This document shows, one piece after another, positions 6,435 to 62,443 of a DNA stretch of 64,000 bases; position 1 is the first letter of the stretch; every line of letters begins with the position of its first letter. This stretch comes from a virus. Under the pieces are notes generated by a model. The model did not search any database. It was not told the origin of the DNA and saw only the letters and a program-made list of their open reading frames with translations. The stretch covers positions 9,371-73,370 of IMG/VR virus record IMGVR_UViG_3300027887_000463. The stretch is one strand, 5' to 3'. A program made the translations under genes and the position numbers.

Positions 6435-6463
6435 TTGATTTTCGTGTATAATCTACGTATAAT
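6435..6463 (+). promoter_or_regulatory. sigma70-like promoter TTGATT-17 nt-TATAAT
   Basis: TTGATT at 6435-6440, a 17-nt spacer, then TATAAT at 6458-6463. The sigma-factor ATG (6469) lies 6 nt after the -10 element and no Shine-Dalgarno sequence lies between them. Confidence 0.5.
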
Positions 6464-6468
6464 AGACT

Positions 6469-7182
6469 ATGACTGACAAACAAGAAGAACTGAATCTGTG
6501 GAAGAAGTGGAGAAAAACGGGGGATCCTAGCTATATGAATTCCCTAATCAACTCATTAAACCCCTATCTACAGTCCCATGTAAATAAGTTTTCGGCGGTA
6601 CCAATCCCACGTACCGCTTTAGAGAGTCAAGCAAAGCTATTGGCCTTGAAAGCCCTACAGACATATGATCCAAAGAAGGGTACTCAAATCAATACGCATC
6701 TTGGACATGAACTAAAGCACTTAAATAGATACGTGATTGAGTATCAGAATGTCGGTAAGATACCAGAGAATCGTGGCATAGCTATATCTAAATTTCAAAA
6801 CATTAAGTCAAATTTGACGGAAGATCTCAGTCGAGAACCTACCGTTATAGAACTGGCAGATGCCTTGCAATGGTCCCCTGCCGAAGTCGAGCGGATGCAA
6901 AATGAACTAAGAAGTGATATACTTATCACTCAAGGAAAAGAAGAAGCCTTTTTTGATACCACATACAATCCTTCCGATCGAGACAGGGATATAGTTGAGT
7001 TTGTCTATTATCAGTCCTCCCCTGAAGAAAAGAAAGTCCTAGAATATACATTTGGGATGGGAGGAAATCCCAAATTATCGACTGGAGAAATCGCTATGCG
7101 ATTAAATAAAACTCCAGCCGAAATAGGTAGCATGCGTAAAAGATTAGCGTTAACAATAAAAGACGCGGCAAGTAATTACTAA
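6469..7182 (+). CDS. RNA polymerase sigma factor (sigma-70 family, group 3/4-like)
   Basis: Region-2-like block ESQAKLLALKALQTYDPKKGTQINTHLGHELKHLNRYV. Region-4-like HTH block SPEEKKVLEYTFGMGGNPKLSTGEIAMRLNKTPAEIGSMRKRLALTIKDA. At 237 aa the size fits a small sigma factor. Confidence 0.7.
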   Translation: MTDKQEELNLWKKWRKTGDPSYMNSLINSLNPYLQSHVNKFSAVPIPRTALESQAKLLALKALQTYDPKKGTQINTHLGHELKHLNRYVIEYQNVGKIPENRGIAISKFQNIKSNLTEDLSREPTVIELADALQWSPAEVERMQNELRSDILITQGKEEAFFDTTYNPSDRDRDIVEFVYYQSSPEEKKVLEYTFGMGGNPKLSTGEIAMRLNKTPAEIGSMRKRLALTIKDAASNY

Positions 7183-33686: not shown

Positions 33687-35675
33687 ATGCCATCCTTACC
33701 ATATGACGGTACTGCTATAACAGCATCAGATGCTACCATAGCTACCTACTCAAGATTACAATACCCAAATCCGTTTTTCGATCTTTCAAGACATTACTTT
33801 CCGAAGACCGTTAAAACGCTTTTCAAGTATTGTCGTATCTTTTTCTATCAGAATGAGTTCATTCATAATGTTATTACAAAGTTAGCAGAGTATCCAGTCA
33901 CCGATTTTCTCTATGAAGGTCTGGACGATAAAGAGGTTCGTAATAACTATAAAGAACTCATCGATCATCATCTCAATTTAAAATCATTCCTTATTGAAGT
34001 CGGATTAGACTACTTTACATACGGTAACTGTATTGTTTCTGCCAATATGAAATTCAAACGGTTTCTACAGTGCCCCGCGTGTAATGAAATGCAGCCGGCA
34101 GAAAATGTAACATTTAAATGGGTTAACTATACCTTCCAGGGCAAATGCGAAAAATGCGGTGCCCAGAGTGTTACGTTTAAAATGGTTGATAAGTATCTTA
34201 AAAGCCCAAGATTCCTTAAATTCATTCGTTGGGCACCAGAAAACATCAACATAGATTATGATGATCTTACAGGAGAAGCACGTTACTTCTATACAATGAA
34301 TGATAAAACGAACAAAGCTATTCGTGAAGGAAAGCCTGAAATTCTTGTTCGCGTTCCGAAGATATTCATTGATGCTATAAAGAGCAATAAGAAAATTGAA
34401 CTGGATCCACACAATCTTTTCCATCTAAAGAGACCCACCCTGGCAGAAGAAGATCAGGGTTGGGGTAAACCGCTTCTACTTCCCACCATGAAGATGCTGT
34501 GGTATATGCAGACACTTCGTAGAGGAAACGAAGCTATCGTAGCAGACCATTTAATCCCTAATAGGGCAGTATTCCCATCAGCACAAGGTAACTTAGACCC
34601 ATTCACACAGTTGAACATGGGACAGTGGCGTTCCAATGTAGAGGATCAGATTCTTAAGTGGAGGCGTGATCCTAATGCCATTGGCATATTCCCTATTCCA
34701 ATTGGTTATCAATCACTTGGTGGAGATGCTCGTGTTCTAATGGTAACACCCGAACTAAAGTACCTAGAAGAATCTATTATCAATGCACTCGGCGTGCCTA
34801 TCGAATTTATCAAAGGTGGTTCGACATGGACTAGCTCTTCGGTATCCCTGCGTATTGTAGAAAATCACTTCCTTACCTACAGAGAAGAGCTTGATAAATT
34901 CATCAATTATTTTATTGTACCAAAGATAAGATACTTCTTAGGATATCCGCCTGTGGTCCTCAGATTAAAGAAATTTAAGATGATGGATGATGCACAGACC
35001 AAGGAAATTCTACTTCAAATGGCTCAGTTAGGCAAGATATCTGATACAACGCTACATGCAGAACTAGGCCTGGATTCGCAAGAAGAGATGCAGAATAAGC
35101 GTCAAGAAGCAAAGGTTCAAACAGATGTACAAACACAATTAATGCTAGCCCAAGCCGATGCCCAGGGCAAGGCTGCTGTACAAGGCGCTCGCTATCAAAT
35201 GCGTGCCCAGTATGAAGCGATGGAAGAAAATGCCCGGCTTAAAGAACATAAATTCTCGGCAGAATTGGTTCAAGAATTACAGCTTACAGATGTGGACCCC
35301 TCAGACTTCCTAGAGAAGCAGTCTATAATGATGGATGGTCTGGAGCCGGAGAAGCAACAGCAACTTCTTATGATCTATCAAACTAAGGCTCCTATCGCTT
35401 TTGGATTCTTAATGAAACGTTTACAGGGGCTTGCAGGAGTAGATCCAGCCGCTGTTGCTCAGCAACAGATGGAAATGGAAGGTATGAAACAGCAAGATAA
35501 GATGCAACAGAAACAACATGACCGTGATATGGAAAGATCTAAGGTCGATGAAAAGAAAGCTAAATCTGACCATGAACGCAAGGTAGAAGGTGCCGCTGTT
35601 GATATGGCAAAGAAAGAACATGCTGCTCAGTTACAAAAAGATAATCCAAAAGAGGAAAAGAAGGAGAAGAAATAA
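33687..35675 (+). CDS. portal-like protein (tentative) with inserted zinc ribbon
   Basis: 662 aa. INALGVPIEFIKGG resembles the portal motif (a.GvP.ellg). It also has a long Q/K/E-rich C-terminal tail. CPACNEMQ...CEKCG forms a CxxC...CxxC ribbon. No terminase or major capsid gene lies adjacent in the window. Confidence 0.4.
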   Translation: MPSLPYDGTAITASDATIATYSRLQYPNPFFDLSRHYFPKTVKTLFKYCRIFFYQNEFIHNVITKLAEYPVTDFLYEGLDDKEVRNNYKELIDHHLNLKSFLIEVGLDYFTYGNCIVSANMKFKRFLQCPACNEMQPAENVTFKWVNYTFQGKCEKCGAQSVTFKMVDKYLKSPRFLKFIRWAPENINIDYDDLTGEARYFYTMNDKTNKAIREGKPEILVRVPKIFIDAIKSNKKIELDPHNLFHLKRPTLAEEDQGWGKPLLLPTMKMLWYMQTLRRGNEAIVADHLIPNRAVFPSAQGNLDPFTQLNMGQWRSNVEDQILKWRRDPNAIGIFPIPIGYQSLGGDARVLMVTPELKYLEESIINALGVPIEFIKGGSTWTSSSVSLRIVENHFLTYREELDKFINYFIVPKIRYFLGYPPVVLRLKKFKMMDDAQTKEILLQMAQLGKISDTTLHAELGLDSQEEMQNKRQEAKVQTDVQTQLMLAQADAQGKAAVQGARYQMRAQYEAMEENARLKEHKFSAELVQELQLTDVDPSDFLEKQSIMMDGLEPEKQQQLLMIYQTKAPIAFGFLMKRLQGLAGVDPAAVAQQQMEMEGMKQQDKMQQKQHDRDMERSKVDEKKAKSDHERKVEGAAVDMAKKEHAAQLQKDNPKEEKKEKK

Positions 35676-38327: not shown

Positions 38328-38390
38328 AGGTCTCCTATTGGTTGGTCATTATCTTATACCATATTGAGAGGGTAAAAAAATGCAAGACGA

Positions 38391-46265: not shown

Positions 46266-46294
46266 TTGACTTTTAATTGCTTTTTTCGTATCAT
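46266..46294 (+). promoter_or_regulatory. sigma70-like promoter TTGACT-17 nt-TATCAT of the RNAP gene
   Basis: TTGACT at 46266-46271, a 17-nt spacer, TATCAT at 46289-46294, then AAAAAGGTG and the ATG at 46314. The track ORF start (TTG at 46266) is the -35 element itself. Confidence 0.6.
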
Positions 46295-46313
46295 AGACAA
46301 AAAGGTGTACTAC

Positions 46314-49300
46314 ATGGTAAATAAGCTAGATCCAGGTCTCCAGTCTAAGAACATCCAAGAAGCTATAGCAAATGTGATTAAATCACAGTTTCCTATTCAG
46401 GGTCGATATCAAACCTTGGAGCTTGTTGGGCCCCTAACAATTCAAGATGATTTAGATGATCAAGATTTTCCTGCTCAGCGTGAAGCCAAGCTCAGCGGAA
46501 GATCCTGGCAAGTTCCTGTGTACGGAACTTTCCGCCTCACTGATAATAAAACTGGAAATGTTATTGATGAAGCTAAGGATATAAAGGTCGCCAATATTCC
46601 TAAGCTTACGGATCGTTTCTCCATGCTCATCGAAGGTAATGAATATACTACGATGAATCAATTTCGTCTCAAGCCAGGAATTTATACTCGTAAAAAAGCT
46701 AACGACGAAATGGAGTCTCAATTTAATCTTGCCGTAGGTTATAACTTCAAAATGATGATGGATCCGGCAGATGGTATCTTCTATTTATATATTGGAAACC
46801 AGAAGTTCCACCTGTATACCCTGCTTCGTGCTTTTGGCGCCTCAGAAAACGAGATGATTAAATCCTGGGGCAATGCTCTGTTTGATAAAAACAAAAATGC
46901 TGGCCTCAACGAAGAGGGAAAAGAAATACCTCTGATGTGGGAGAAGTTGAAGAGACAAAAACTTCCATACGAAGAAGCTCTCAATGCTTTAAAGGATTAT
47001 TTCGATAAGACCAGAATTGATGTTGATACCACAGAAATTACCCTTGGTCGTGGAGTAGATCGTGTTACTCCAGATGCATTACTTCTTACTTCATCTAAAC
47101 TCTTACGTGTTCTACGTGGAGACGAGCCAGAAGATGAGCGCGATAGCCTAGTCTTCAAAGATCTCTATACCGTCGATGATCTTGTTCAAAAACATATCGA
47201 GAAGCGTGCTCCGAATATTCAAAAGAATCTTTTAGCCAGAACAGACCATAAGCAATCAATAAGAGAAATCATCTCACCAGATACTTATACCAAAGATATT
47301 AAGTCTTTTTTCACGCAAGGTGACTTAAGTAACCCATCCCCACAGACTAACCCCGTCGAGATGTTGGGCGAGTGGCGGAAGACTACTATCACAGGCACGG
47401 GTGGTATTCAGAGTTCACATGCCATCACCTTCAAAACTCGTGACATTCACCCAACACACTTGGGTTTTGTTGATCCTCTTAATACTCCAGAGTCGGGTAA
47501 AGTAGGTGTAACCCTTCCTCTAGCTATGCATGTTGAGAAACATGGAAAAGATATTAAGACACGATTGGTTACTCCAGAAGGAAAAGATATATTTGCCACA
47601 CCAGTAGAATTCTACAAAATGAAGGTCGGATTTCCAGATCAGCATGTTGAGGGTAAAGCTAAAGGCACCATGATTAAGGCGATGTATCGTGGGCAATCTG
47701 TGGTTCTTCCTGCCAAAGATATTGATGCATATATTCTTGACCCAACAAGTATGTTTGCTTGGACAACTAACCTTGTTCCATTCTTAGGACATAACTCGGG
47801 TAACCGCGCCCTCGTGGCCGCTAAAATGGTAACTCAAAGTGTCCCATTGAAAGCTCCAGAAACTCCTCTGGTAAAAGTTGTTGGACAAACCGGAGAAACG
47901 CTTGATTCAGTATTAGGCACGTTCTTAAAACCTAAGGTTCCTAAAGGATTTGGAACAGCCACTGTAATGAAGATCGATGATGACTACATTCATATAAGAA
48001 ATGAAAAGGGCGATCGTCATAAAGTTGGTTTATACAAAGACTTCCCGCTAAATCAAGAATCTTTTATTAATTCACGAGTTCTAGTTGATATCGGGCAGAA
48101 AGTCAAGGAGGGTGAACCTCTAGCGGATACTAACTTTTCAGACAAGAGTGGAAACTTTGCTCCTGGTGTAAATGTCAATGTTGCATATATGCCTTGGCAT
48201 GGATATAACTACGAGGACGGTATTGTTGTTACAGATTCTCTTTCCAAACGTTTTACATCAACTGTAATGTTGAAAAAGAATCTGCAGGTAGGGAAGGATA
48301 GTATTCTAGACCTAAAGAAATTTGTTTCATATTATCCTAAAGAATTGACGGTTGCCAACATTGAGAAAATGGATGATACAGGAGTAATAAAGGAGGGCGT
48401 TCGTATTGAGCCCGGTGAAACACTTATTGCTCATCTAAGCAAAATGGATCTAACGGATACACAAAAGATCCTAAAAAATATGAATCGTGTATTATCCAAT
48501 CCTTATCGTAATCAATCTCTTACCTGGGATGGAGAAAATCCAGGTGTTGTAACCCACGTTAGAAAAGTAGGAAATACTTATCAAATTCATGTGAAGGAAG
48601 AGCAACCACTCAAGGTTGGGGATAAGCTAGCCGCTCGGTATGGGGATAAAGGTATTGTTACGAAGATCATTTCAGATTCCGAAGCACCCCATACCAAAGA
48701 TGGAAATCGTATAGATATGATGGTTAATATTCATGGTGTAGTAGGCCGTATGAATATGGGGCAGCTACTTGAAGCAGCTGCTGGTCGAATCGCTATGAAG
48801 ACAGGCAAGCCTTTCTTAGTAAAGAACTTTGCTGACCGAGATTATCTATCTGATATTATGGCTGAAATGAAGAAGTTAAAACTTGAACCTAATGAGACGC
48901 TTCTGGATGGAGCAACGGGTAAGCCATTTGAAAAACCAGTCTTCTGGGGCAATAAGCATTATCTAAAGCTGATGCATGTAGTTGATCATAAGTACAAAGC
49001 TCGTGGAATCCCCGGATCTTATGATGCAAATGAGCAACCCGTCCATGGCGAGGTCGGAGGACAATCAGTTGATCCTCTACAGATGTATTCGTATCTTGCG
49101 CACGGTGCACGAGAGAATCTATATGAATTTACCGCGGTGAAAGGTCAGAAGAATGACGAGTATTGGCGTGCGCTACAGCTCGGTCTTCCGCCTCCTCCAC
49201 CCCAAAGAAACTTTGTCTTTGATAAGTTCATTAATTATATCAAGGCAGCTGGGGTTAATGTTGAGAAGAATGGAACTCGGTTTAAACTATTCCCAGCCAC

Positions 49301-52300
49301 CTCAGATGATATGTTAAAATGGTCTGCTGGCGAGCTTACAGATCCTGGTCATATGTTACGTGGAAAAGATCTTAGTGAAATTAAGGGTGGTTTATACGAC
49401 CCGAAATTAACGGGAGGGCTGCGAGGTACTAACTGGACCCACTTCAAACTAGAAGAGCCGATCCCCAATCCATTATATGAAAATGCAGTTAAGTCAATCT
49501 TAGGGCTAAATACACCTGCATTTGAACGTATCATCAATGAAGATGATAAAGATTCAAAGATGAAAGGTAACCAGCGTATAGCCAAAATGCTTTCGGATAT
49601 TGATATAGATGAAGAATTAGCCAAAGCTAAGGACGCCCTAAAGACAGCTGGACCTACACAAGTTAACACTTTGAACAAAAGGATTCGTTTCCTATCAGTG
49701 TTGAAGGAGCGTAATTTACGTCCTGAAAAAGCATATATGATGGAATTGATACCAGTACTTCCTCCAATTTATAGGCCAGTTTATCCATTACCTTCCGGAG
49801 ATACACAGAATTCTCCAATTAATTATCACTATCGTGACGTAGCTGTGTTGAATCAGTCTATAAAAGATATAAAAGCACAAGGTCATTTGATAGATGAGTT
49901 GGAACAGAACAGAAAGAATAGATCTGACTTATACAAATCTGTAAAAGCTTTAATGGGATTAGCAGAGCCCATCACCTTTACTACTCGTCAATATGAAGGA
50001 CTTCTTGGAACTCTTGCCGGAGATTCTCCAAAGCAAGGATTCATTCAGAACAAGTCCTGGTCGAAACGTCAAGATTTATCGGCTCGGTCCACGATCACAG
50101 TGGAACCTTCGCTCGGTATCGATCAAGTTGGATTGCCTGACGTCATGTTGAAAGATCTCTTTAAACCGTTTGTTATGAGAGAAATTGTACGCCAAGGTTA
50201 CAAACCAACTGAAGCCTTAGAACAGATAAAAACCTGGACTCCTGTAGCGGAACAAGCTCTGAATAATGCTATTAAACAGCGGCCCGTTATGCTTAACCGG
50301 GCACCATCTCTTCATAAGCATTCAGTACAGGCATTCTGGCCACAGAGATTTGAAGGACAAAGTATTCGTGTAAGTCCATTGACAGCAAAAGGATTTAACT
50401 TTGACTTTGATGGCGACACCATGTCAGTACACGTTCCTGTGTCTGAAAAAGCTGTGGAAGAAGCTAAAGGCATGCTGCCAACAAAGAATCTCTACAAAGC
50501 CGGCGATCGTCAGCATATGATTAATATTGAACAGGATTACCAGCTTGGTCTTTATTATTTATCACAGCTCGGAGCAGATACTGGAAAACGATTTTCTTCT
50601 ATTAGCAAGGCAATAAAGGAAGTTAAGGATCGTAATACTACCTTTACTTTAGATGGTAAAAAGATGAGTATCGGACAATGGGAAATTAACGACCCACTTC
50701 CTGATGCTTTGAAAGATTATACGCGACTCATGGATTCAAAAGCCGTCAAAGGTTTAGTAGATACATTATTTATGAAATATCCCGGTTATCTTGGAACTGT
50801 TATTGATACCTGGAAGGAGCTCGGAAGAAACTACGCAGTTCAAAGAGGTAGTACCGTGTCCATTACAGATATGGTCGTTGATCGCAGTTACAGGGATAAG
50901 ATCTTAAAAGATTATGAAGCTAAAATTAAGCCTGGTATGGATAAATATGAAGTCTCAAAGATCTATGGTGATGCTAAAGCTGAGATGGAAGAGGCTCAAG
51001 AAAAGCTTCTAAAGGGGAAGAACAACTTTTATGATATGTTACAAGCTGGAAGTACTTCGAAGAAGGGTCAGGTTACACAGATCCTTTCCATGCCGGGCAT
51101 TATGATGGACGTTCACGGAGAGCCAATTCCACATCCTGTAAAGAAATCTTGGTCAGAAGGTCTTGATACATTTGATTATTGGAACCAGTCTTATGGTGCC
51201 CGTAAAGGTGTTGTGGATCGTTCCGTTAATACTCAAGATTCTGGAGCTTTAAATAAAGAACTTCTATTTACTACTAAGAGTTTATTAGTTATTGAAGAAG
51301 ATTGTGGAACTCCAGAGGGTATTATATTAGATACTGATTCCAAAGAAGTTATGGATCGATTTCTTTCAAGTGATGTTCCGGGCGTTGGTAAGAGAAATGA
51401 TCTTGTTACAAATGAGCGTATGTTAAAAGCGAAAACAAAGAAAATAGAAAAACTTCCAGTACGATCATCTCTCACCTGTGAAGCTGAGGGCGGAGTTTGT
51501 CAGAAATGTTATGGCCTTATGGCAAACGGACAACTTGCTCGTATAGGAGAAAATGTAGGAGTTATTGACTCTGAGGCTGTTACTGAACGTTCTACTCAAT
51601 TACAAATGCAGACTTTCCATACTGGGGGTGTTGCAGGCGGAGGGGCAGCAGTAACATTAGGGTTCCCTAGATTGGAAGAGCTCTTGTATGTTCCACAGAA
51701 GATTCGAGACGCAGCGGTTCTTTCGCGAGAAGATGGTATTGTTACTCAAATTACAGAGAATCCAGCAGGAGGAAAAAATCTCTTCATTGGTCGTAGTGAG
51801 TACTATATTCCAAGAGAGAGACGTCTAGACGTTTCCGTCGGCTCTCGAGTAAAACGTGGTGATCGTTTAACAGATGGTTCCATTAAGCCACAGGAATTGT
51901 CGGAATTAAAAGAGCATCTTACAGCCCAGCAATATATAGCAGATGAAATCAATAAGATTTATGAGAATAAATTTGCAAGGAAAACTTTTGAAACCGTTTT
52001 ACGTGGTGTAGCAAATAATGCCGAAATAACAAATATTCCTGAAGAAGTAGAAGCAAGTGCTAATTTTATGCGGGGCGATACAGTACCGATAACTCGTGTA
52101 AAGAAATTAAATAGAGAGCTACTTGCTGAAGGAAAACCACAGATAGAATATAAGCCATTCTTTAAATCTATCTCTGTACTCCCATTACATAGTGACGATT
52201 GGCTAAGTAGATTAACAACAAACAGATTAAAACAAACTATCCAAGAGGCAGCTTCTATGGGTATGGAGAGCGATGTTAAGGGCACAGACCCGATGTCTGC

Positions 52301-52361
52301 TTATCTATATGGACTTGATTTTGGAAAAGATGTTGATCCAACAAAGAAGAAATTCTATTAA
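46314..52361 (+). CDS. fused beta-beta' multisubunit-type DNA-dependent RNA polymerase (single chain)
   Basis: The beta blocks come first: RDIHPTHLGFVDPLNTPESGKVG, LVPFLGHNSGNRALVAAKM, MPWHGYNYEDGIVV, RYGDKGIVTKI...GRMNMGQLLE and KLMHVVDHKYKARG. The beta' blocks follow: VLPPIYRPV, KRQDLSARSTITV, NRAPSLHKHSVQAF, NFDFDGDTMSVHVP, YGARKGVVDRSVNTQDSGALNKEL and TQLQMQTFHTGG. Confidence 0.9.
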   Translation: MVNKLDPGLQSKNIQEAIANVIKSQFPIQGRYQTLELVGPLTIQDDLDDQDFPAQREAKLSGRSWQVPVYGTFRLTDNKTGNVIDEAKDIKVANIPKLTDRFSMLIEGNEYTTMNQFRLKPGIYTRKKANDEMESQFNLAVGYNFKMMMDPADGIFYLYIGNQKFHLYTLLRAFGASENEMIKSWGNALFDKNKNAGLNEEGKEIPLMWEKLKRQKLPYEEALNALKDYFDKTRIDVDTTEITLGRGVDRVTPDALLLTSSKLLRVLRGDEPEDERDSLVFKDLYTVDDLVQKHIEKRAPNIQKNLLARTDHKQSIREIISPDTYTKDIKSFFTQGDLSNPSPQTNPVEMLGEWRKTTITGTGGIQSSHAITFKTRDIHPTHLGFVDPLNTPESGKVGVTLPLAMHVEKHGKDIKTRLVTPEGKDIFATPVEFYKMKVGFPDQHVEGKAKGTMIKAMYRGQSVVLPAKDIDAYILDPTSMFAWTTNLVPFLGHNSGNRALVAAKMVTQSVPLKAPETPLVKVVGQTGETLDSVLGTFLKPKVPKGFGTATVMKIDDDYIHIRNEKGDRHKVGLYKDFPLNQESFINSRVLVDIGQKVKEGEPLADTNFSDKSGNFAPGVNVNVAYMPWHGYNYEDGIVVTDSLSKRFTSTVMLKKNLQVGKDSILDLKKFVSYYPKELTVANIEKMDDTGVIKEGVRIEPGETLIAHLSKMDLTDTQKILKNMNRVLSNPYRNQSLTWDGENPGVVTHVRKVGNTYQIHVKEEQPLKVGDKLAARYGDKGIVTKIISDSEAPHTKDGNRIDMMVNIHGVVGRMNMGQLLEAAAGRIAMKTGKPFLVKNFADRDYLSDIMAEMKKLKLEPNETLLDGATGKPFEKPVFWGNKHYLKLMHVVDHKYKARGIPGSYDANEQPVHGEVGGQSVDPLQMYSYLAHGARENLYEFTAVKGQKNDEYWRALQLGLPPPPPQRNFVFDKFINYIKAAGVNVEKNGTRFKLFPATSDDMLKWSAGELTDPGHMLRGKDLSEIKGGLYDPKLTGGLRGTNWTHFKLEEPIPNPLYENAVKSILGLNTPAFERIINEDDKDSKMKGNQRIAKMLSDIDIDEELAKAKDALKTAGPTQVNTLNKRIRFLSVLKERNLRPEKAYMMELIPVLPPIYRPVYPLPSGDTQNSPINYHYRDVAVLNQSIKDIKAQGHLIDELEQNRKNRSDLYKSVKALMGLAEPITFTTRQYEGLLGTLAGDSPKQGFIQNKSWSKRQDLSARSTITVEPSLGIDQVGLPDVMLKDLFKPFVMREIVRQGYKPTEALEQIKTWTPVAEQALNNAIKQRPVMLNRAPSLHKHSVQAFWPQRFEGQSIRVSPLTAKGFNFDFDGDTMSVHVPVSEKAVEEAKGMLPTKNLYKAGDRQHMINIEQDYQLGLYYLSQLGADTGKRFSSISKAIKEVKDRNTTFTLDGKKMSIGQWEINDPLPDALKDYTRLMDSKAVKGLVDTLFMKYPGYLGTVIDTWKELGRNYAVQRGSTVSITDMVVDRSYRDKILKDYEAKIKPGMDKYEVSKIYGDAKAEMEEAQEKLLKGKNNFYDMLQAGSTSKKGQVTQILSMPGIMMDVHGEPIPHPVKKSWSEGLDTFDYWNQSYGARKGVVDRSVNTQDSGALNKELLFTTKSLLVIEEDCGTPEGIILDTDSKEVMDRFLSSDVPGVGKRNDLVTNERMLKAKTKKIEKLPVRSSLTCEAEGGVCQKCYGLMANGQLARIGENVGVIDSEAVTERSTQLQMQTFHTGGVAGGGAAVTLGFPRLEELLYVPQKIRDAAVLSREDGIVTQITENPAGGKNLFIGRSEYYIPRERRLDVSVGSRVKRGDRLTDGSIKPQELSELKEHLTAQQYIADEINKIYENKFARKTFETVLRGVANNAEITNIPEEVEASANFMRGDTVPITRVKKLNRELLAEGKPQIEYKPFFKSISVLPLHSDDWLSRLTTNRLKQTIQEAASMGMESDVKGTDPMSAYLYGLDFGKDVDPTKKKFY

Positions 52362-52372
52362 GGTAAAAAAAT

Positions 52373-52398
52373 AAAAGGGGAGTTTCGGCTCCCCTTTT
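52373..52398. terminator. bidirectional rho-independent terminator
   Basis: AAAAGGGGAG-TTTCGG-CTCCCCTTTT forms a 10-bp stem with A/T runs on both sides. It lies between the RNAP stop (52361) and the convergent - strand gene (52405). Confidence 0.75.
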
Positions 52399-52404
52399 AC
52401 TTTA

Positions 52405-52770
52405 CTACTCCAGCGGCTCGCCCATCCCAAATGATCCTACCCACAGCCTTTCTCCTCCACCAAAAGACATCTCGAAGCAATCCGAGTGTACCTTCTTTAG
52501 AAGAGCCGACATCTCCCAGCCGTATACAAGAATAAGATGCTTCACGTGCTTCATCGCATCTGCACTTGTTTTACCCGCAATTACATCTTCTACGGTGACT
52601 GTGAAATAGTCTGCCTGGGCTGCTTCATTGGGAATCGTAGCAAACGCCTCAAGATCAGGATTCGTAATTAGAATCTGACCTTTGGATGGAGAAACTGTAT
52701 AAATCTCTCCATAAGGCGTTCTACTATACATGCCCAGCGGCTGATTATTGAAATCAACTAAATAGATCAT
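52405..52770 (-). CDS. hypothetical protein
   Basis: 121-aa ORF with an ATGA overlap to the upstream gene. Confidence 0.5.
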   Translation of the reverse strand: MIYLVDFNNQPLGMYSRTPYGEIYTVSPSKGQILITNPDLEAFATIPNEAAQADYFTVTVEDVIAGKTSADAMKHVKHLILVYGWEMSALLKKVHSDCFEMSFGGGERLWVGSFGMGEPLE

Positions 52771-53732
52771 TCTCCGAGTTTCACTGCACTCCAGATGGTT
52801 TCGAAGGAAAGGGCTGTTCCCTTCTTCGGACCAATTGTCTGAACCTTGAGGTTCTTCCAGCTGGCATCACCATCTGCTTTACGTTCCTGTGTGTTGAGTT
52901 CCTTTACGTTAGGATACGTATAGGGCTCAAGCTGTTCATTGTAAAGATTGGAGTTTACAATTGTGACATAGTGCTTCACGGAATTATAAACTTTTCTCAT
53001 TAACACAACACGAACAGCACCAGGATTGGTCTGGAAGTATAGCTGGGCGATAAGATCATCGCTTCCATAGCGATCTGACTCGATGAGGATCAAAGCAGAA
53101 AGATCGTTATGAAAAATCACATCATACTTGAGATTTGGATAGTTTCGTTCGACTGCTTCCATTTCTCCAATATGTGTATGCCAGTAGTCTTCCTGATCTG
53201 TCAGATAATGCCAGCAGGATTCGGTCCTTGGCTTTCCAGGAAGATCCTTAAATGGAAAAGGAAATTCATTGAGAAAGTTATTCAAAAGCCTTGGACGTTG
53301 CTGTTTAACGAAGGTGTACTTGTCCGCAGTCCACTCCGAAAGCTCCCCAATCAATGCGGAAAGCTTGGTGCCAGAAATCAGCACGTCTTGACGAGTTTCT
53401 GATTCCAGCAAAACTGCAGCCAGAGAATCGTCGGGAGTGATGTCATAAATCGGACGATACAACACGGGCGGTTCCCATTTGGGGTTGTGAGTCATAAATG
53501 AGAACGCCTGGCCAGCGATTGACATCAAACTGGCACGCTCTTCCGGCTTGTGCAATCTCTGCACACCGAAAGTTACTGCCTTGAGCGTGGGATAGAAACG
53601 AAATTGAGGAAACCCATCCTTTGTCAAGGTTCCGGCATTCGTAATATTCAGCCCGATAATGGCAGTATTTGGAGCGACCTGTATATTGGTCAACTCGCTG
53701 TTATCCTTGGCATTGAGAAATATAACTTTCAT
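52767..53732 (-). CDS. hypothetical protein
   Basis: 321-aa ORF with SD AAGGAG upstream of the ATG. Confidence 0.55.
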   Translation of the reverse strand: MKVIFLNAKDNSELTNIQVAPNTAIIGLNITNAGTLTKDGFPQFRFYPTLKAVTFGVQRLHKPEERASLMSIAGQAFSFMTHNPKWEPPVLYRPIYDITPDDSLAAVLLESETRQDVLISGTKLSALIGELSEWTADKYTFVKQQRPRLLNNFLNEFPFPFKDLPGKPRTESCWHYLTDQEDYWHTHIGEMEAVERNYPNLKYDVIFHNDLSALILIESDRYGSDDLIAQLYFQTNPGAVRVVLMRKVYNSVKHYVTIVNSNLYNEQLEPYTYPNVKELNTQERKADGDASWKNLKVQTIGPKKGTALSFETIWSAVKLGE

Positions 53733-53791: not shown

Positions 53792-55960
53792 TTATTTGTT
53801 CACAACGACAACCTTTCCGTCGACCAGTTGAACTTCAAATGACCTTGCATCTGGATTCTCCAGAAGAAGATCTGCCATCTTTGATTCAACTTCCTTTTCA
53901 ATCAATCGACGCATTGGTCGAGCACCATATTCCGTAGAGTAGCCCTTTTCCAAGAACCAGTCTTCGGCTTCTGGTGTAAAGCTCATCGTAAACCGTTCGT
54001 TGATATCGTTTACCATAAGCTTCATGATCTGTCTCATACTGTCCTTATCGAGACGATTAAAGGTAACAATCTCGTCAAGGCGGTTGAGAAACTCCGGCTT
54101 GAAAAAGCTCTTCAACGCCGCCTTAAGATTCTTCTTCATATCATCATCTGCTGATGTTTCAGAGAATCCAAGGTTACGTTTTCCGGCGCTCTCAACACCG
54201 ATGTTTGACGTGATAATGATAATAGTATTTTTGAAACTGACAACCCTCCCTTGAGAATCAGTCAGAATACCATCATCAAAAATCTGAAGAAGCACATTGA
54301 ATACATCCGGATGCGCTTTCTCTATCTCATCAAACAATACAACTGAATACGGCTTCTTACGAACTTTCTCTGTAAGCTTTCCACCGCTATCATCGTATCC
54401 GATGTATCCCGGAGGAGCTCCGATAAGCGAAGAGATGGTGAACCGATCAAAGAATTCACTCATATCCAAACGAATCATTGCCTGTTCCGAATCAAACAGA
54501 TATCTAGCCAACTGTCTGGCCATCTCTGTTTTTCCAACCCCAGTAGGTCCAATGAAGAGGAAGGTGCTTGGGCGTTTATCGCTTTTGACACCGGTGCGTT
54601 TCCGTTTAATTGAGTTGGATACAGCTTGAATAGCATCTGGCTGTCCAACCAATCTTCCAGAAAGATCGGTATCAATGTGCTTTAACTTTTCCCGTTCCGA
54701 CTTATTGAGATTGGTGATAGGAACACCGGTTGTCTTCGAAACTACTCCTCGAATGATATCATTGTCGACCTGGACTGTGCCAGCGAGTTTTGCGACTGCC
54801 GCAGCTTCATCCAAAACGTCAATGGCTTTATCAGGAAGGAAACGATCCTGAATATAGCGTTCGGTGAGTTCAATAATGGTTGGAATAGCTTCCTGTGGAA
54901 TTTCCACCCCGTGATAAAGTTCATAGACATATTTGATTTGGCCGAGAATCTGTGCGGTTTCCTCCAGGGTTGGTTGCTCAATCATCACCTTCTGAAATCT
55001 CCGCTCCAACGCTCCATCCTTCTCGACATGCTTGCGAAATTCATTGGCAGTAGTTGCGCCAATGCATTTAATGTATCCACGTGATAGTGCCGGCTTGATG
55101 ATGTTTGCAGCATCACCAGTTCCCTCAGTACCTCCCGTACCCATAAGGGAATGCATCTCATCGATAAACAGAATGATATCAGGATTCTTCATCAGTTCCT
55201 TGATAATCATCTGCATCCTCTGCTCGAATTGTCCCCTGTACTGCGTTCCCGCAATAATGGAGTTGATGTCAAGTGAAAGGATTCTTTTGTTGAGAAGCAT
55301 TTTGGGAACATTACCCGCAGCGACGCGCATTGCCAGACCTTCGACAATAGCGGTCTTTCCCACGCCTGGCTCACCGATCAACGCAGGGTTGTTCTTCTTC
55401 CTGCGTGCTAGGATCTCGATGACACGTGAGATTTCGGATTCGCGTCCGATGACCGGATCTAACTTATTCTCCTGAGCCAGAATCGTCAGATCCATCGAAA
55501 AAGCATTTAGTGCCGGAGTGTTTTGTGAACTTGTCCGATCACTTGATACCTTTTTCTTTGGTTCTCCGACTTCAGTGTAGCCAACTTCATTGAGCATCTT
55601 GGACGCTACACTGTCTGGTGTACGATAGAGACTGTGAACTAAAGCATCTGCTTCTATTGTTCCGGTTATCGATATGAACTTGGCGAAGTTCAGAATATAA
55701 CGCATCGAATTCGAAACTTTCGGAAGAGGGTTCGTTACTGCAATATCCCTCTGTATTACACGGAATCGATCCGACAAGAGTGTACGAAGTTTACCAATGT
55801 TTGCCCCATTCTTGTTTAAAAGCGTAAGGCCTTCGTTATCACCTTGCTCCACGATTGCAAAAAGTAAGACTTCACTGGAAATTGTATCTTGGTTAAGCTC
55901 CGTCGCTTTCTTTCGAGCTAATCCAAAGATTTCCTCTGTCTTTGTTGAATACTGATTCAT
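53792..55960 (-). CDS. ClpA/ClpC-type two-ring AAA+ unfoldase
   Basis: It has a Clp_N-like N-domain. NBD1 carries GEPGVGKTAIVEGLA and ILFIDEMHSLMG. NBD2 carries FIGPTGVGKTEMARQLA, VVLFDEIEKAHPDVFNVLLQIFDDG and GARPMRRLIE. There is no long ClpB-type middle domain. I set the start at the ATG at 55960 (AAAAGGAG-6 nt-ATG), not the track start at 56017. Confidence 0.85.
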   Translation of the reverse strand: MNQYSTKTEEIFGLARKKATELNQDTISSEVLLFAIVEQGDNEGLTLLNKNGANIGKLRTLLSDRFRVIQRDIAVTNPLPKVSNSMRYILNFAKFISITGTIEADALVHSLYRTPDSVASKMLNEVGYTEVGEPKKKVSSDRTSSQNTPALNAFSMDLTILAQENKLDPVIGRESEISRVIEILARRKKNNPALIGEPGVGKTAIVEGLAMRVAAGNVPKMLLNKRILSLDINSIIAGTQYRGQFEQRMQMIIKELMKNPDIILFIDEMHSLMGTGGTEGTGDAANIIKPALSRGYIKCIGATTANEFRKHVEKDGALERRFQKVMIEQPTLEETAQILGQIKYVYELYHGVEIPQEAIPTIIELTERYIQDRFLPDKAIDVLDEAAAVAKLAGTVQVDNDIIRGVVSKTTGVPITNLNKSEREKLKHIDTDLSGRLVGQPDAIQAVSNSIKRKRTGVKSDKRPSTFLFIGPTGVGKTEMARQLARYLFDSEQAMIRLDMSEFFDRFTISSLIGAPPGYIGYDDSGGKLTEKVRKKPYSVVLFDEIEKAHPDVFNVLLQIFDDGILTDSQGRVVSFKNTIIIITSNIGVESAGKRNLGFSETSADDDMKKNLKAALKSFFKPEFLNRLDEIVTFNRLDKDSMRQIMKLMVNDINERFTMSFTPEAEDWFLEKGYSTEYGARPMRRLIEKEVESKMADLLLENPDARSFEVQLVDGKVVVVNK

Positions 55961-56361
55961 AGTACTCCTTTTGTGAATAAAATTTGGAAGGCTGCGATCC
56001 GCAATCCTTGATAACATACCGTCCGATTATTAGGCCATCGGGGCCTATTATCATTCCTACTATTCCATACTGCTACCTGATCACGAAACGTAACCCTGGA
56101 ATGGGAAATGCATTCCGCGATTGGGATGACAACCTTCCCTTGAAAGGGATAACCTGGCCAGGACTAGAGCTTCTCCACAGCCCCTTTGCTAGGGTAGGGC
56201 CGTGTGTCTGAAAAGTACAGATACCCCTCCCCAGGTCCTTTGCCTGGGCGTTAGGGCTCATCAAAAGTCGAAGCGACTTTCTATAGCTTGATAGCTTCTT
56301 CAAACCAAATTGGCCGAAGAATCCTCATGCGCCCACCTCTACTCGTAGCCAAGCTCCCTAA
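55961..56361 (-). other. long GC-enriched, hairpin-rich intergenic leader (candidate structured RNA)
   Basis: About 400 nt without a credible ORF in an otherwise gap-free genome. Several 6-bp-stem hairpins are present (for example TAGGCC-ATCGG-GGCCTA at 56031-56047, GGAATG..CATTCC ~56098-56116 and CCCAGG..CCTGGG ~56230-56248). Confidence 0.3.
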
Positions 56362-56529: not shown

Positions 56530-57226
56530 ATGATATTACCTCGACTTGATTTCCGTCTAGTTTAACAACTTGTTTTGTGAATTGAAGGCAGTCGATATCC
56601 CAATTGGAACCTTTTTGTTTTATCTTTGTGACCGGTGTATGGCCAAAGATCTGGGTTAATCCTTCCACGGGATTGAAGTCAACAGCAAAGTCAGACCAAA
56701 ATATACCTGCGTTTTGATCCACTCCCCCACGACTCATTCCAATGTTATATACTAACCCATCATCTACAGATCTCCAGGATTCTTGTAAAAAGAATTCAAT
56801 CAAATCAATGAAATCTTCTCTCTCATAGAGATCGGGGGTAGTTTCGAATGCCTCTCGAAGAAGCTGTGAATTAAGCCCTGCGTGTGTGATGAGTACCTTA
56901 TTTTCCTTATCCAGAATAAAAGGTTTCATCAGTTTCCACATACGGCTTTTTAATGCTATGATTTTTGCGTCGAAACTTGATGCATATCCCGAACACCGCA
57001 TACGCCTCATGAGATACGATAGCTCATGATTACCAAAAACACATTCAGTGGTTCCTCGTTCAATATCATTTAGAACCAACTCTAGAAGCTTGAACTGTTC
57101 TGTTCGTGAAAAGTAAAAGGAATCGAGCAGATCTCCAGTTAAAATCAGCTTCTCTTTTGTTGAACTCTTTACTTCGTGATAGAAGTTGATCTCACCATGG
57201 AGATCTCCGATTACGATTGCTTTCAT
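56375..57226 (-). CDS. calcineurin-like metallophosphoesterase (lambda Ser/Thr phosphatase type)
   Basis: Motifs IGDLHGE, TGDLLDS, FGNHE, ITHAGL and IFGHTP occur in the canonical order. The last ~48 codons may not be genuine (see the ORF at 56362). Confidence 0.75.
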   Translation of the reverse strand: MKAIVIGDLHGEINFYHEVKSSTKEKLILTGDLLDSFYFSRTEQFKLLELVLNDIERGTTECVFGNHELSYLMRRMRCSGYASSFDAKIIALKSRMWKLMKPFILDKENKVLITHAGLNSQLLREAFETTPDLYEREDFIDLIEFFLQESWRSVDDGLVYNIGMSRGGVDQNAGIFWSDFAVDFNPVEGLTQIFGHTPVTKIKQKGSNWDIDCLQFTKQVVKLDGNQVEVISYEKPETEAGRSEGPPGIVREVDPFRPTESSGRKTGKRLGRNKRADEDSEEA

Positions 57227-57711
57227 CGATTAAAATAATCCTCGTTGTGCCACTCTGGTGGTTTTCTGTTTGTCCATCTTTTGTCTATGTGCTTTTTTCC
57301 ATAAAAATAATACTTTCTATAAGCCCAAATGGTGTTGCCAAATTTATATTCATCTGGCATACATTTTGGAGGAGAGGAAAATCCTATAATCGGTATATCT
57401 TTTGGAAGGCGCTGAAGAAGCCACATAGGCTCGCTTGTTTTATGATGCTTACCATATCTGTGGTTGTATTCGGATAATAGCCACTGCCCATACTCCAGCA
57501 ACCACTGGTAATTTTGGCCAGAAGTTCGCGCCCATATGGCACACGGATGATTTTTATGTGTCGGTTGGTACATCCCCCGTTTCCACGAACCCAGTTCAGA
57601 ATGTGCAGTGCTGAGCAGCTGTGCAGTCTCTAAAATCATCTTTACTACATGCTTATCACACAGCATTGCTGCACATGTTTTAGGATCTCGTGCAAGGTAG
57701 AAAATGTTCAT
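57223..57711 (-). CDS. conserved hypothetical protein (MNIFYL..DP...AA....DKHVVKM.LE.AQ.L family)
   Basis: 162-aa ORF. I recall the N-terminal pattern as recurrent in phage and giant-virus proteins, but I cannot assign a function. Confidence 0.5.
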   Translation of the reverse strand: MNIFYLARDPKTCAAMLCDKHVVKMILETAQLLSTAHSELGSWKRGMYQPTHKNHPCAIWARTSGQNYQWLLEYGQWLLSEYNHRYGKHHKTSEPMWLLQRLPKDIPIIGFSSPPKCMPDEYKFGNTIWAYRKYYFYGKKHIDKRWTNRKPPEWHNEDYFNR

Positions 57712-58044: not shown

Positions 58045-58066
58045 AAGGGCACGGTTAGGTGCCCTT
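58045..58066 (-). terminator. rho-independent terminator overlapping the Pnkp-like stop codon
   Basis: AAGGGCAC-GGTTAG-GTGCCCTT. On the - strand it is followed by TTTTATTTAC. The TAA stop (58055-58057) sits in the loop. Confidence 0.6.
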
Positions 58067-60690: not shown

Positions 60691-61051
60691 GTTCGATCTT
60701 CTCCAATGATTGGATATTTGTGTATGCGTAAAAGGTACCTAGTTTGGTACCCGTATCTTTGAAACATAGTTTAATCTTTACACTATGCGCAGATTCATAG
60801 AACGGCATTGTATACCCCAGTAACTCTAGCTGAGTTCCCGCAGGTAGAAGCAGTTGTCCGTTTCTAGGTATTCCGTATTGACCTCTGTGTACATTGGGAT
60901 CTGGAGTGAACATATTTCCAGCAAAAGTACTCACTCGCTTCTGTGCGTAACTTGTGGAGAGTTCTATTGAGACCAACTGGTCTTTTATTACAATAAACTC
61001 TCGCTTACCCTCAAAAAAATTGAATCTCATTTTAAAGACCAATCTAACCAT
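60674..61051 (-). CDS. hypothetical protein
   Basis: 125-aa ORF that overlaps both neighbours. Confidence 0.5.
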   Translation of the reverse strand: MVRLVFKMRFNFFEGKREFIVIKDQLVSIELSTSYAQKRVSTFAGNMFTPDPNVHRGQYGIPRNGQLLLPAGTQLELLGYTMPFYESAHSVKIKLCFKDTGTKLGTFYAYTNIQSLEKIELEPCK

Positions 61052-62369: not shown

Positions 62370-62407
62370 AGAAATTCTCCTTTGTTACTTTCTTATACCA
62401 TGAAAGT

Positions 62408-62437: not shown

Positions 62438-62443
62438 ACATTA

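Follow-up and report, generated by a model that had tools for sequence, protein, structure and literature searches.

Phage-encoded relatives of the bacterial RNA polymerase (RNAP) subunits beta and beta' have been described in several forms. The multimeric-RNAP-encoding Caudovirales (mReC) carry split beta and beta' (Weinheimer and Aylward, 2020; PMC7481178), and crAss-like, YonO-type, and P23-45 RNAPs lack recognizable sequence similarity to COG0085/COG0086 (PMC7481178). In purified virions of Salmonella phage Arash, gp206 (beta-beta'N) ranks first by spectral count, and both gp216 and the sigma factor gp10 are abundant, although the authors warn that such preparations may be contaminated by abundant intracellular proteins (PMC10585845). 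Enzymes related to the one analyzed here have been published. However, no fusion is reported for mReC and sigma is never mentioned (PMC7481178), and in both that paper and the Arash study (gp206/gp216; PMC10585845) the fusion goes unremarked and a link between sigma and the enzyme is absent. The GenBank labels on proteins of Arash and the related Vibrio phages read just "RNA polymerase subunit beta" or "hypothetical protein".

The window, a 64,000-nucleotide stretch of IMG/VR record IMGVR_UViG_3300027887_000463, encodes an authentic RNAP in which beta and beta' form one chain; its active site is intact, and it lacks the beta' N-terminal Zn-ribbon (Table 1). The ORF listing and translation give a single open frame from 46266 to 52361 (+) with no interruption. 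Starting at ATG 46314, the product has 2,015 aa, matching database copy P0001 in length and start. Pfam domains of both halves are matched in the order Rpb2_3 and Rpb2_6 (beta), then Rpb1_1, _2, _4 and _5 (beta'). The uninterrupted fusion proposed in the original prediction is thus borne out. Because P0001, identical to the window ORF, is present in at least three independent assemblies, and hundreds of diverged homologues retain one frame, a frameshift and an assembly error are excluded. Moreover, some family members carry inteins at catalytic motifs and some have TGA recoded as Trp yet remain single-frame, evidence that translation of the gene yields a single chain and is under selection.

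Table 1. Features of the window that bear on the fused RNAP and its sigma factor (aa numbering of the 2,015-aa protein unless E. coli is named)
Feature	Position	Strand	Remarks
Sigma70-like site TTGATT-17-TATAAT	6435..6463	+	5' of sigma gene; conserved in L087, L093
Phage sigma70-family factor, 237 aa, regions 2-4	6469..7182	+	Putative initiation factor of fused RNAP
Portal protein gene	33687..35675	+	phrog_16240; ancestral upstream neighbor of RNAP gene
Conserved TCTTATACCA box	46247..46256	+	Upstream of RNAP gene; candidate family-wide cis element
Sigma70-like promoter-like site TTGACT-17-TATCAT	46266..46294	+	10/12; 20 nt before ATG; candidate
Shine-Dalgarno-like AAGGTG	46302..46307	+	Read from sequence, 5' of ATG 46314
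Fused beta-beta' RNAP gene	46314..52361	+	2,015 aa plus stop; Rpb2 then Rpb1 domains
Beta moiety, aa 1-988	46314..49277	+	Complete bacterial-type beta without lineage-specific insertions
Rifampicin-pocket region	47313..47396	+	Aligned to E. coli beta 507-534; D516->P, H526->E, S531->T
Beta/beta' joint, aa 981-994	49254..49295	+	Last beta strand, 2-residue turn G987-T988, first beta' strand
Beta' moiety, aa 989-2015	49278..52358	+	~370 bits to B. subtilis beta'
Excision site of beta' N-terminal Zn-ribbon, 32 residues	49413..49418	+	Between G1034/G1035; E. coli beta' 64-95
Catalytic Mg-binding motif N1362-F-D-F-D-G-D1368	50397..50417	+	Translation, E. coli alignment
Second, retained Zn-binding site C1664, C1722, C1729, C1732	51303..51509	+	Aligned to E. 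coli C814, C888, C895, C898
GC-rich hairpin, A-run and T-run flanks	52368..52403	.	Between convergent genes; terminator-like in both directions

Each half resembles its bacterial counterpart. A cyanobacterial beta aligns with the protein across aa 57-982, and the beta moiety keeps the equivalents of E. coli K1065 and K1073 together with the flap-tip helix. The AF2 model of beta (pLDDT 86.7) gives Foldseek TM-scores of 0.76-0.80 against bacterial beta, and the model of beta' plus the joint (aa 930-2015; pLDDT 87.5, pTM 0.80) gives 0.76-0.82 against bacterial beta'. As modeled, then, both moieties are predicted to fold as complete bacterial subunits (TM 0.76-0.82). In the alignment to E. coli, the final beta residues (aa ~972-988, FINYIKAAGVNVEKNGT) abut the first conserved beta' block (RFKLFPATSDDMLKW..., from aa 989), which places an essentially linker-free joint at nt ~49,275, within the interval of 49,270-49,310 originally proposed. 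The joint strands (E52-57 and E60-65 of the aa 930-2015 model) are adjacent at high pLDDT.

All catalytic elements are intact, in agreement with the initial reading of NFDFDGD and the trigger-loop/bridge region. Alignment A1 shows no variation at D1364, D1366, G1367, or D1368, the bridge helix and a short trigger loop are retained, and the sigma-docking elements, namely the clamp coiled-coil and flap-tip helix, are conserved. The cysteines of the retained Zn site are invariant or nearly so in A1. The suspected lack of the beta' N-terminal Cys4 element proves to be a clean 32-aa deletion common to all family members aligned, and in 77 of 77 family sequences the stretch matching E. coli beta' 1-125 is free of Cys. 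Both the fusion and the Zn-ribbon loss are ancestral to the phage clade. Judging from the pocket substitutions, the fused enzyme is probably rifampicin resistant. The term "miniaturized" stems mainly from the choice of E. coli beta and beta' as reference and is overstated, because the large gaps match insertions peculiar to the E. coli lineage (beta i4, i9, and i11; beta' SI3), which account for most of the shortfall. The moieties (988 and 1,027 aa) are only ~8-18% below the compact cellular enzymes sampled (beta, 1,075-1,131 aa; beta', 1,192-1,256 aa), and the whole protein is ~10-15% smaller than the most compact ones.

The expectation that phage RNAPs are split rather than fused holds for the phiKZ and AR9 types. 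However, crAss-like and YonO enzymes are single-chain, and the fusion seen here is widespread: clustering of its carriers at 50% identity gives more than 150 clusters, and in IMG/VR it occurs at no fewer than 528 loci. A neighbor-joining tree separates the phage clade from 15 cellular rpoBC enzymes, including those of H. pylori and H. anseris, in 50/50 bootstraps and by a long branch. NCBIfam scores fall far under the cut-offs for rpoB, rpoC, and fused rpoBC, and the beta' halves within the family score at least 550 bits vs. ~370 for cellular beta'. The fused protein is the characteristic, hallmark enzyme of a large but virtually undescribed lineage of tailed phages with big genomes (contigs up to ~230 kb), which includes the cultured phages Arash and Vibrio D69.

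The original prediction also described an isolated transcription unit. The fused gene is indeed the sole + strand gene within 36017-64000, preceded by the predicted promoter and followed by a hairpin with A and T runs, a predicted bidirectional terminator. The promoter-like site is intergenic, well placed, and kept in five of seven close relatives (L004, L005, L006, L010, L014); across 45900-52900, the count of such sites is not above that of shuffled controls. The isolation itself, however, is derived and specific to the subclade of the window. In 56 of 80 related IMG/VR loci, as well as in Arash and D69, the RNAP gene follows a portal gene of the same orientation, often at a distance of only 0.2-2.5 kb, whereas ~10 kb of opposite-strand genes is inserted between the two in the window. 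The neighbors of the fused gene here are non-structural (for example, MoxR/VWA and ClpB-like), and the window also encodes portal, baseplate, and other phage genes. The position of the RNAP gene apart from the structural module, with a sigma70-like promoter, fits host-driven early expression and a non-virion role equally. The TCTTATACCA box is invariant across eight relatives and, with at most one mismatch, lies within 140 nt before the RNAP ATG at 47 of 80 loci vs. ~1 expected. A conserved TCTTATACC box precedes the RNAP gene, and Arash/D69-type phages carry a TCTTATACC/TGGTATAAGA box too.

The reported sigma factor is real. Its Sigma70_r3 match exceeds the Pfam cut-off, and its profile matches RpoS/RpoD regions 2-4. 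The gene lies inside the structural module, and its product is an orthologue of Arash gp10 (29% identity, 233 aa, E 9e-32). It shares nine contigs of matching size and four IMG/VR contigs with the fused RNAP; in one IMG/VR pair, identity to the window is 35% for the RNAP and 30% for sigma.

The best overall explanation, with a probability of about 0.7, is an alpha/omega-less, sigma-dependent single-chain RNAP core that is probably virion-associated. The gene would encode the whole catalytic core of a bacterial-type multisubunit RNAP in a single polypeptide, with the beta C-terminal strand joined directly to the beta' N-terminal strand, its neighbor in the clamp of the AF2 model. The protein is very probably an active DNA-dependent RNAP, which would transcribe phage genes without the host core enzyme and be insensitive to rifampicin. 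Promoter-specific initiation is likely mediated by the co-encoded 237-aa sigma factor; if sigma supplies promoter specificity, the holoenzyme would consist of two polypeptides. There is an even chance that the covalent tether stands in for the alpha-dimer and omega assembly scaffold, so that neither would be required. Equally balanced is the proposal, already suggested for Arash, that core and sigma would be packaged in the virion and injected with the DNA to start early transcription. Together, the fused enzyme and sigma may be the simplest sigma-dependent cellular-type RNAP known.

A core that is not self-sufficient, requiring host alpha (and omega) or an unrecognized phage subunit while the phage sigma mainly reprograms host RNAP, is less probable. 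Precedents exist, as phage sigmas usually redirect host RNAP, most acting on the host core, and work by Severinov and colleagues in 1997 reportedly found that E. coli beta and beta', when fused artificially, remain able to assemble with alpha. Alpha-docking surfaces may persist because the beta and beta' folds are complete, and host alpha could be recruited. Since the window represents 64 kb of a genome of probably 150-230 kb, the remainder could also encode an accessory subunit, whether alpha-like, omega-like, or novel. Against this, and as first noted, Pfam scans detected no alpha or omega domain in 45 window ORFs, which include all non-overlapping ones of at least 100 aa except 17566-27291 (3,241 aa), 60674-61051, 62016-62369, and 62444-64000. 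The protein also lacks the C-terminal tail of beta' (E. coli 1378-1405 in the alignment), which is part of the omega contact. Moreover, the sigma-RNAP pair is co-inherited down to ~30% identity and co-packaged in Arash, and phiKZ/AR9 multisubunit RNAPs function without alpha/omega (PMC7598289, PMC13282480).

It is similarly doubtful that the enzyme is never packaged but is expressed by host RNAP after infection and, with the phage sigma, drives middle/late transcription. Such a role would fit the host-like -35/-10 sites conserved ahead of both genes (RNAP and sigma) in the window and in close relatives, the non-structural surroundings of the window gene, and the warning of the Arash authors that abundant enzymes may co-purify with virions (PMC10585845). 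However, gp206 tops the purified-virion list, with sigma at 100% coverage (PMC10585845), the portal and RNAP genes are linked throughout the family, the sigma gene sits amid structural genes, and a single RNAP set is seen instead of the separate virion and non-virion sets of phiKZ-type phages. An artefact, with two adjacent genes merged by an assembly or frameshift error or a bacterial contig contributing a cellular rpoBC fusion, might be suspected because some homologues are deposited in bacterial MAG bins (e.g., "Bacteroidales," "Brocadiales," and "Acidimicrobiaceae"). This reading is extremely improbable and is rejected in view of the repeat assemblies, the single-frame family, the phage genes of the window, the low equivalog scores, and the long branch.

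The sigma-dependent single-chain core favored here can be set against known systems. The crAss-like gp66, YonO, and TMP-fused P23-45 RNAPs likewise carry both double-psi beta-barrels on one polypeptide, and the crAss-like and P23-45 enzymes are virion-delivered, but the crAss-like and YonO enzymes are far more divergent, and all three lack the bacterial-type domain complement and sigma. The phiKZ/AR9 jumbo-phage RNAPs are also phage-encoded beta/beta' relatives without alpha/omega, one set being virion-packaged; they differ in comprising 4-5 polypeptides, lacking a sigma70-family factor, and using unrelated promoters, and they are highly divergent, with PHROG E-values of 1e-8 to 1e-31 vs. 1e-82 to 1e-121 for the closest families. 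The cellular rpoB-rpoC fusions of Helicobacter (PRK09603) and Wolbachia (PRK14844) share the order of beta then beta' in one chain. As anticipated, they are full-size (~2,840-2,900 aa vs. 2,015 aa), and they operate in alpha2-omega-containing holoenzymes, whereas the window protein lacks the Zn-ribbon, sits on a separate long branch, and reaches scores of 540 (cut-off, 5,372) and 471 (cut-off, 4,632) for these fusions.

The window protein probably belongs to the mReC clade, as compared by its published description. Members of that clade, drawn from IMG/VR and metagenomes (PMC7481178), are large, uncultivated tailed phages, some from metagenomes that also yield loci of the fused family. Their bacterial-like beta/beta' readily align with COG0085/COG0086 and form branches of their own outside the cellular RNAPs, and the class b proteins (beta, ~1,000 aa; beta', ~900-975 aa) approximate the total size of the window protein. 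However, every published entry consists of separate beta and beta' proteins, with two sets on some contigs. Arash and Vibrio D69/D148/D181 differ in having ~30% identity to the window protein and a beta' that is interrupted past the catalytic domain, yielding a beta-beta'N protein of 1,525 aa and a beta'C protein of ~606 aa, whose genes lie 0.6-4.8 kb apart, with a homing endonuclease between them in D148/D181. Nonetheless, these phages fall in the same clade in 50/50 bootstraps vs. cellular enzymes, and the Arash/D69 group shares with the window the aligned beta/beta' joint, the Zn-ribbon excision, a portal gene directly upstream, and, in the Arash group, an orthologous sigma within the structural module.

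The fused beta-beta' RNA polymerase (fused RNAP) is encoded in one open frame, and ORF listing and translation give 2,015 aa from the ATG at 46314, six bases 3' of an AAGGTG Shine-Dalgarno-like sequence. Pfam places Rpb2_3 (aa 343-406) and Rpb2_6 (aa 580-912) on the beta side, followed by Rpb1_1, _2, _4 and _5 between aa 1096 and 1897 on the beta' side. The best matches among solved structures, by sequence search, are B. subtilis 6wvj_D for beta' (~370 bits) and cyanobacterial 8syi_C for beta (~286 bits, aligned over aa 57-982). In a family alignment anchored on E. coli rpoB and rpoC, aa 972-988 lie opposite the final beta residues and aa ~989 opposite beta' residue ~17, so that the joint falls at nt ~49,275, without a linker. 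These results bear out the original prediction of a single uninterrupted beta-then-beta' ORF joined with almost no linker near 49,270-49,310. A missed stop or frameshift at the joint is ruled out, as at least three separate assemblies yielded the identical protein and many homologues are single-frame. The fused RNAP is a real and well-conserved feature, neither an artefact nor rare, and is not confined to the present contig.

The catalytic core is conserved throughout. The Mg-binding motif in the beta' double-psi beta-barrel (N1362-FDFDGD-1368) is invariant in the family alignment, and the beta barrel keeps its catalytic lysines (GDK...R.G.KG, aligned to E. coli K1065/K1073). Also conserved are the bridge helix, a short trigger loop, the clamp coiled-coil, the flap-tip helix and the second Zn site (C1664, C1722, C1729, C1732); the clamp coiled-coil and flap-tip helix are the main sigma-docking elements of bacterial RNAP. 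Confident AlphaFold models built on family alignments (aa 1-999, pLDDT 86.7, pTM 0.80; aa 930-2015, pLDDT 87.5, pTM 0.80) superpose on solved bacterial beta and beta' with TM 0.76-0.82 (Foldseek). As modelled, both folds are complete, with lobes, flap, clamp, bridge helix, trigger loop and second Zn site. The model sets the final strand of beta (aa 981-986) beside the opening strand of beta' (aa 989-994), with a two-residue turn, G987-T988, between them.

Alignment gaps of at least eight residues fall at E. coli beta ~230-419, 935-1046 and 1126-1189 and at beta' 946-1183, the positions that established RNAP literature assigns to E. coli lineage-specific insertions (the beta i4 region, i9 and i11; beta' SI3 and its neighbourhood). 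The earlier label 'miniaturised' is therefore overstated, although the enzyme is compact: its moieties measure 988 aa (beta) and 1,027 aa (beta'), against 1,075-1,131 and 1,192-1,256 aa in the compact cellular enzymes sampled. Judged by alignment, three losses are genuinely unusual: the beta' Zn-ribbon, ~30 beta N-terminal residues and the beta' C-terminal tail (E. coli 1378-1405). The Zn-ribbon (E. coli 64-95) is cleanly excised, leaving a 32-residue gap between G1034 and G1035, and all 77 family sequences lack Cys in the stretch that aligns with E. coli beta' 1-125, in agreement with the predicted absence of the N-terminal Cys4 element. The rifampicin pocket carries the equivalents of D516P, H526E and S531T, substitutions that point to probable resistance.

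The family is large. A search of 5.8 billion proteins returned more than 100 full-length homologues of ~2,005-2,080 aa (35-85% identity, contigs of up to 228 kb), and IMG/VR holds at least 528 related loci, the best 80 of which are nearly all full-length single-frame matches. When the beta' half was searched with HMMER, the top 150 representatives of 50% clusters all scored at least 550 bits, and nearly all are proteins of 2,000 aa or more whose beta' part starts around residue ~1000. Near-identical DNA was absent from the phage collection, and a genome-contig scan yielded neither prophage copies in cultured bacteria nor a reliable host clue. Two relatives lie on contigs deposited in bacterial MAGs, a fused-type RNAP in 'Bacteroidales' (L096, DAOQAF010000001.1, 204 kb) and an RNAP with the Arash-type layout described below in 'Acidimicrobiaceae' (L097, CAYVOK010000008.1, 131 kb); both are probably mis-binned phage genomes. 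'Brocadiales' and 'Paceibacterota' are among the names borne by other homologues.

Many of the longer homologues contain intein or homing-endonuclease domains. Insertions in four related loci (L012, L014, L061 and L096) interrupt conserved motifs, the catalytic NxDFDGD among them, and are read as inteins because such a location is typical of inteins. In these loci and in many database homologues of 2,300-3,500 aa, three sites are repeatedly occupied by intein or homing-endonuclease insertions (~aa 773-807, NxDFDGD at ~aa 1370, and ~aa 1751-1767). A split RNAP was considered for IMG/VR relatives L008, L009, L011 and L041 (~45% identity), whose ORFs appear broken, and was rejected: the 1-11 in-frame stops are all TGA, with no TAA or TAG, and most stand at conserved Trp. 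On this codon pattern, one subclade of the phage lineage is recoded TGA=Trp (code-4-like).

Features of the window discussed in the text
Feature	Coordinates	Strand	Remarks
ORF of 324 aa	5458-6432	+	directly 5' of sigma gene
Sigma70-family gene	6469-7182	+	237 aa, regions 2-4; inside structural module
Module of baseplate genes, sigma, 3,241-aa ORF and portal	293-35675	+	gene annotation of window
Giant 3,241-aa ORF	17566-27291	+	structural module; many internal diverged direct repeats, 45-152 nt
Portal gene	33687-35675	+	end of + strand module
Non-coding gaps beside reverse transcriptase gene	39714-40086, 42043-42662		long
Reverse transcriptase	40479-41363	-	293 aa, compact; RVT_1 E 4e-23
Box TCTTATACC(A)	46247-46256	+	upstream of RNAP gene; invariant in eight relatives
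Fused RNAP frame	46266-52361	+	single open frame
AAA+, RNA-repair and glycosylase genes	42663-45380, 53792-56017, 58055-60223, 57223-57711	-	flanking RNAP gene
IF-3 homologue	60223-60690	-	IF3_N and IF3_C domains; phage-encoded

The window derives from a large tailed phage. In 56/80 loci (the best 80 of at least 528 in IMG/VR), and in the cultured phages Arash and D69, the RNAP gene is preceded on its own strand by the portal gene, often at a distance of 0.2-2.5 kb. Only in the window's subclade (L004-L016) does a minus-strand insertion of ~10 kb, with genes for a glycosyltransferase, a reverse transcriptase, VWA, MoxR and a 227-aa ORF, separate the two, and this insertion gives the RNAP gene its appearance of a lone + strand gene. 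The proposed isolated transcription unit thus describes the present arrangement but does not extend to the family at large. The 3,241-aa ORF is probably a fibre or decoration protein.

The genes flanking the RNAP gene include a MoxR AAA+/VWA pair (syntenic with the RNAP gene within the window's subclade), a ClpB-like double AAA+ ATPase, a Pnkp-type kinase-phosphatase-RNA ligase and a DenV-like pyrimidine-dimer glycosylase; an IF-3 homologue is encoded as well. The reverse transcriptase gene occurs near the RNAP gene in 14 related loci. Its membership of a diversity-generating retroelement is unsupported: no template/variable repeat pair was found in the window, where all repeats lie inside the giant ORF. 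Neither tRNA nor Rfam elements were found in the window, including the ~200-nt leader at 46100-46260.

The sigma factor that had been noted alongside the RNAP is also borne out. Sigma70_r3 scores 32.6 against a Pfam cut-off of 25.3, and a profile alignment over positions 9-231 matches RpoS 85-323 and RpoD 371-596, with regions 2, 3 and 4 in order; the ORF lies under the cut-offs of all NCBIfam sigma subfamilies. It is an end-to-end orthologue of Arash gp10, the sigma factor of that phage (E 9e-32). The homologue lists of sigma and fused RNAP share nine matching 'longest contig' sizes, and both genes occur on four IMG/VR contigs, including one distant pair with 35% (RNAP) and 30% (sigma) identity to the window. 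In line with the original prediction of no alpha or omega homologue visible in the window, Pfam detected no RNA_pol_A, RNA_pol_L or Rpb6 domain among 45 window ORFs, a set without the 3,241-aa ORF and three ORFs at 60674-64000, in a window that is part of the genome. A small conserved ORF between portal and RNAP was rejected as an omega-like subunit; only Arash and D69 have it, and the window has nothing comparable. The 324-aa ORF apparently co-transcribed with sigma gave no Pfam or PHROG match as an alpha subunit; by size and position it is a candidate for an alpha-like or sigma-associated role.

Two kinds of putative expression signal precede the RNAP gene. The predicted TTGACT-17-TATCAT promoter-like site is present, intergenic and kept in 5/7 close relatives. 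Across the window, this and only two other intergenic sites match the sigma70 consensus at 10/12 positions or more; all three are on the + strand with 17-bp spacers, and they precede the RNAP gene, the sigma gene (where the site is kept in two relatives) and the gene starting at 30481. The second signal is the conserved box, found with at most one mismatch within 140 nt 5' of the RNAP start in 47/80 loci (the best 80 of at least 528) against ~1 expected. Its 9-mer core has 66 exact copies in 1.8 Mb of family loci (83 loci), and TCTTATACC lies on the RNAP-coding strand in 63 of them. Distant relatives show the order portal, hairpin, box, ~33 nt with GGAGG, and RNAP ATG, with no sigma70-like promoter; in that setting the box resembles a promoter or operator belonging to the RNAP gene itself. 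Further copies lie immediately 5' of minus-strand genes, including window positions 62391-62400 and 38352-38361, where they read in gene direction as the reverse complement TGGTATAAGA, which is extended -10-like, in the layout terminator-box-RBS-ATG. The strict strand bias of the box is hard to square with the two orientations of the genes downstream of its copies. A mere minus-strand extended -10 promoter was dropped as an explanation, given the unchanged strand orientation immediately 5' of RNAP in distant relatives that lack a divergent gene. Candidate functions for the box are a promoter or operator particular to the family, or a DNA site that acts in a strand-specific way.

The window thus encodes a complete, conserved, single-chain catalytic core of bacterial type that forms its own lineage. 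One tentative reading, to which we assign a probability of roughly 0.35, is a self-sufficient two-polypeptide machine: the beta-beta' core and the 237-aa sigma, without alpha, omega or Zn-ribbon, would travel in the capsid, be injected together with the genome and recognise a family promoter built around the TCTTATACC/TGGTATAAGA box. In the main reading, which is likelier, the fused RNAP is an active, host-independent enzyme, probably insensitive to rifampicin. Initiation would probably rely on the co-inherited phage sigma, although that factor may instead act on the host core. Tethering of beta to beta' would take the place of the alpha2/omega assembly platform, for which the phiKZ/AR9 enzymes, described in reviews as lacking alpha and omega, provide a precedent. 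Alternatively, the fused RNAP may depend on host alpha.

Delivery in the virion belongs to both readings. In purified Arash virions, gp206 (beta-beta'N) tops the spectral counts, and gp216 (beta'C) and gp10 are abundant (PMC10585845). Because of these proteomic data, the portal synteny and the position of sigma inside the structural module, the fused RNAP is probably packaged and injected. It may nevertheless have a non-virion role. By analogy with the virion RNAPs of N4, crAss-like phages and P23-45, each of them one polypeptide, a speculative further benefit of a single chain may be easier refolding after ejection.

If the two-polypeptide machine is real, it represents a minimal sigma-dependent RNAP of cellular type and a counter-example to the textbook dichotomy between phages with multisubunit RNAPs, which are sigma-less, and sigma-encoding phages, which are RNAP-less. 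Should the two-protein holoenzyme work alone, an old assembly question would be answered, in that a beta-beta' tether can replace the alpha2/omega scaffold, and biochemistry, structural work and synthetic biology would gain a compact, probably rifampicin-insensitive, sigma-programmable two-gene RNAP. Its interest for transcription and phage biologists stems from the contradiction of a repeated generalisation and the offer of a minimal testable system. The cultured phages Arash (Salmonella) and D69, D148 and D181 (Vibrio) open the questions of virion delivery and promoters to direct testing.

Compared with cellular enzymes, the fused RNAP falls far below the curated NCBIfam cut-offs of the rpoC and rpoB equivalogs (rpoC_TIGR, 511 vs 963; PRK00405, 370 vs 896) and of the two fused rpoBC ones, PRK09603 (540 vs 5,372) and PRK14844 (471 vs 4,632). 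An NJ tree (1,906 columns) set 13 fused members and three Arash-type enzymes against 15 cellular rpoBC, fused Helicobacter among them. The phage sequences stand apart from the cellular ones in 50/50 bootstraps; monophyly is found in 50/50 for the Arash type and in only 10/50 for the fused set alone. The nearest cultured relatives, at ~29-31% identity, are Arash, D69, D148 and D181, which encode a 1,525-aa beta-beta'N and a separate ~606-aa beta'C, whereas the window phage has one chain. Rhizobium phage RHph_Y65 was rejected as a close cultured relative, since it carries nothing beyond a stand-alone 1,127-aa beta'-like gene, located in a replication module. The joint and the Zn-ribbon deletion are exactly alike in the Arash-type and fused enzymes, so both features are ancestral and the beta' break 3' of the catalytic domain is a separate event, accompanied in D148 and D181 by a homing endonuclease.

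The split mReC enzymes were defined from 97 contigs (Weinheimer and Aylward, 2020; PMC7481178), and each table row examined in that paper gives beta and beta' as separate proteins, in two size classes, in contrast to the single ORF of the window phage. The text mentions neither a fusion in mReC nor sigma, and its pipeline needed one beta and one beta' protein per contig, so that fused ORFs would presumably have been dropped. A T4 gp23-type major capsid protein (PF07068) and a PF03237 terminase are traits of the mReC lineage; in the 64-kb window neither a capsid nor a terminase gene was recognised. Another mReC trait is a phage contig whose beta and beta' cluster apart from all cellular RNAPs; for the fused RNAP, a candidate relative of mReC, the phage context is clear and the 50/50 bootstraps concern 15 cellular rpoBC in a tree without mReC sequences. 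According to reviews from 2020, 2021 and 2026, phage multisubunit RNAPs are split and lack sigma, and jumbo phages that encode sigma lack RNAPs; the present lineage, abundant with hundreds of 50%-identity clusters, breaks both rules. No description of a fused, sigma-associated phage beta-beta' was found in open-access papers and bioRxiv. The fully fused, sigma-paired form is new; phage-encoded bacterial-like RNAPs of the mReC and Arash types are already known, and the fused RNAP is not categorically new. Enzymes of the phiKZ/AR9 type divide beta and beta' into at least two polypeptides each and have no sigma70-family factor, whereas the window phage has one polypeptide and a sigma. A natural series for RNAP domain economy and evolution comprises the split mReC enzymes, the Arash type with its beta-beta'N plus beta'C, and the full fusion, in which inteins and TGA recoding may each be present or absent.
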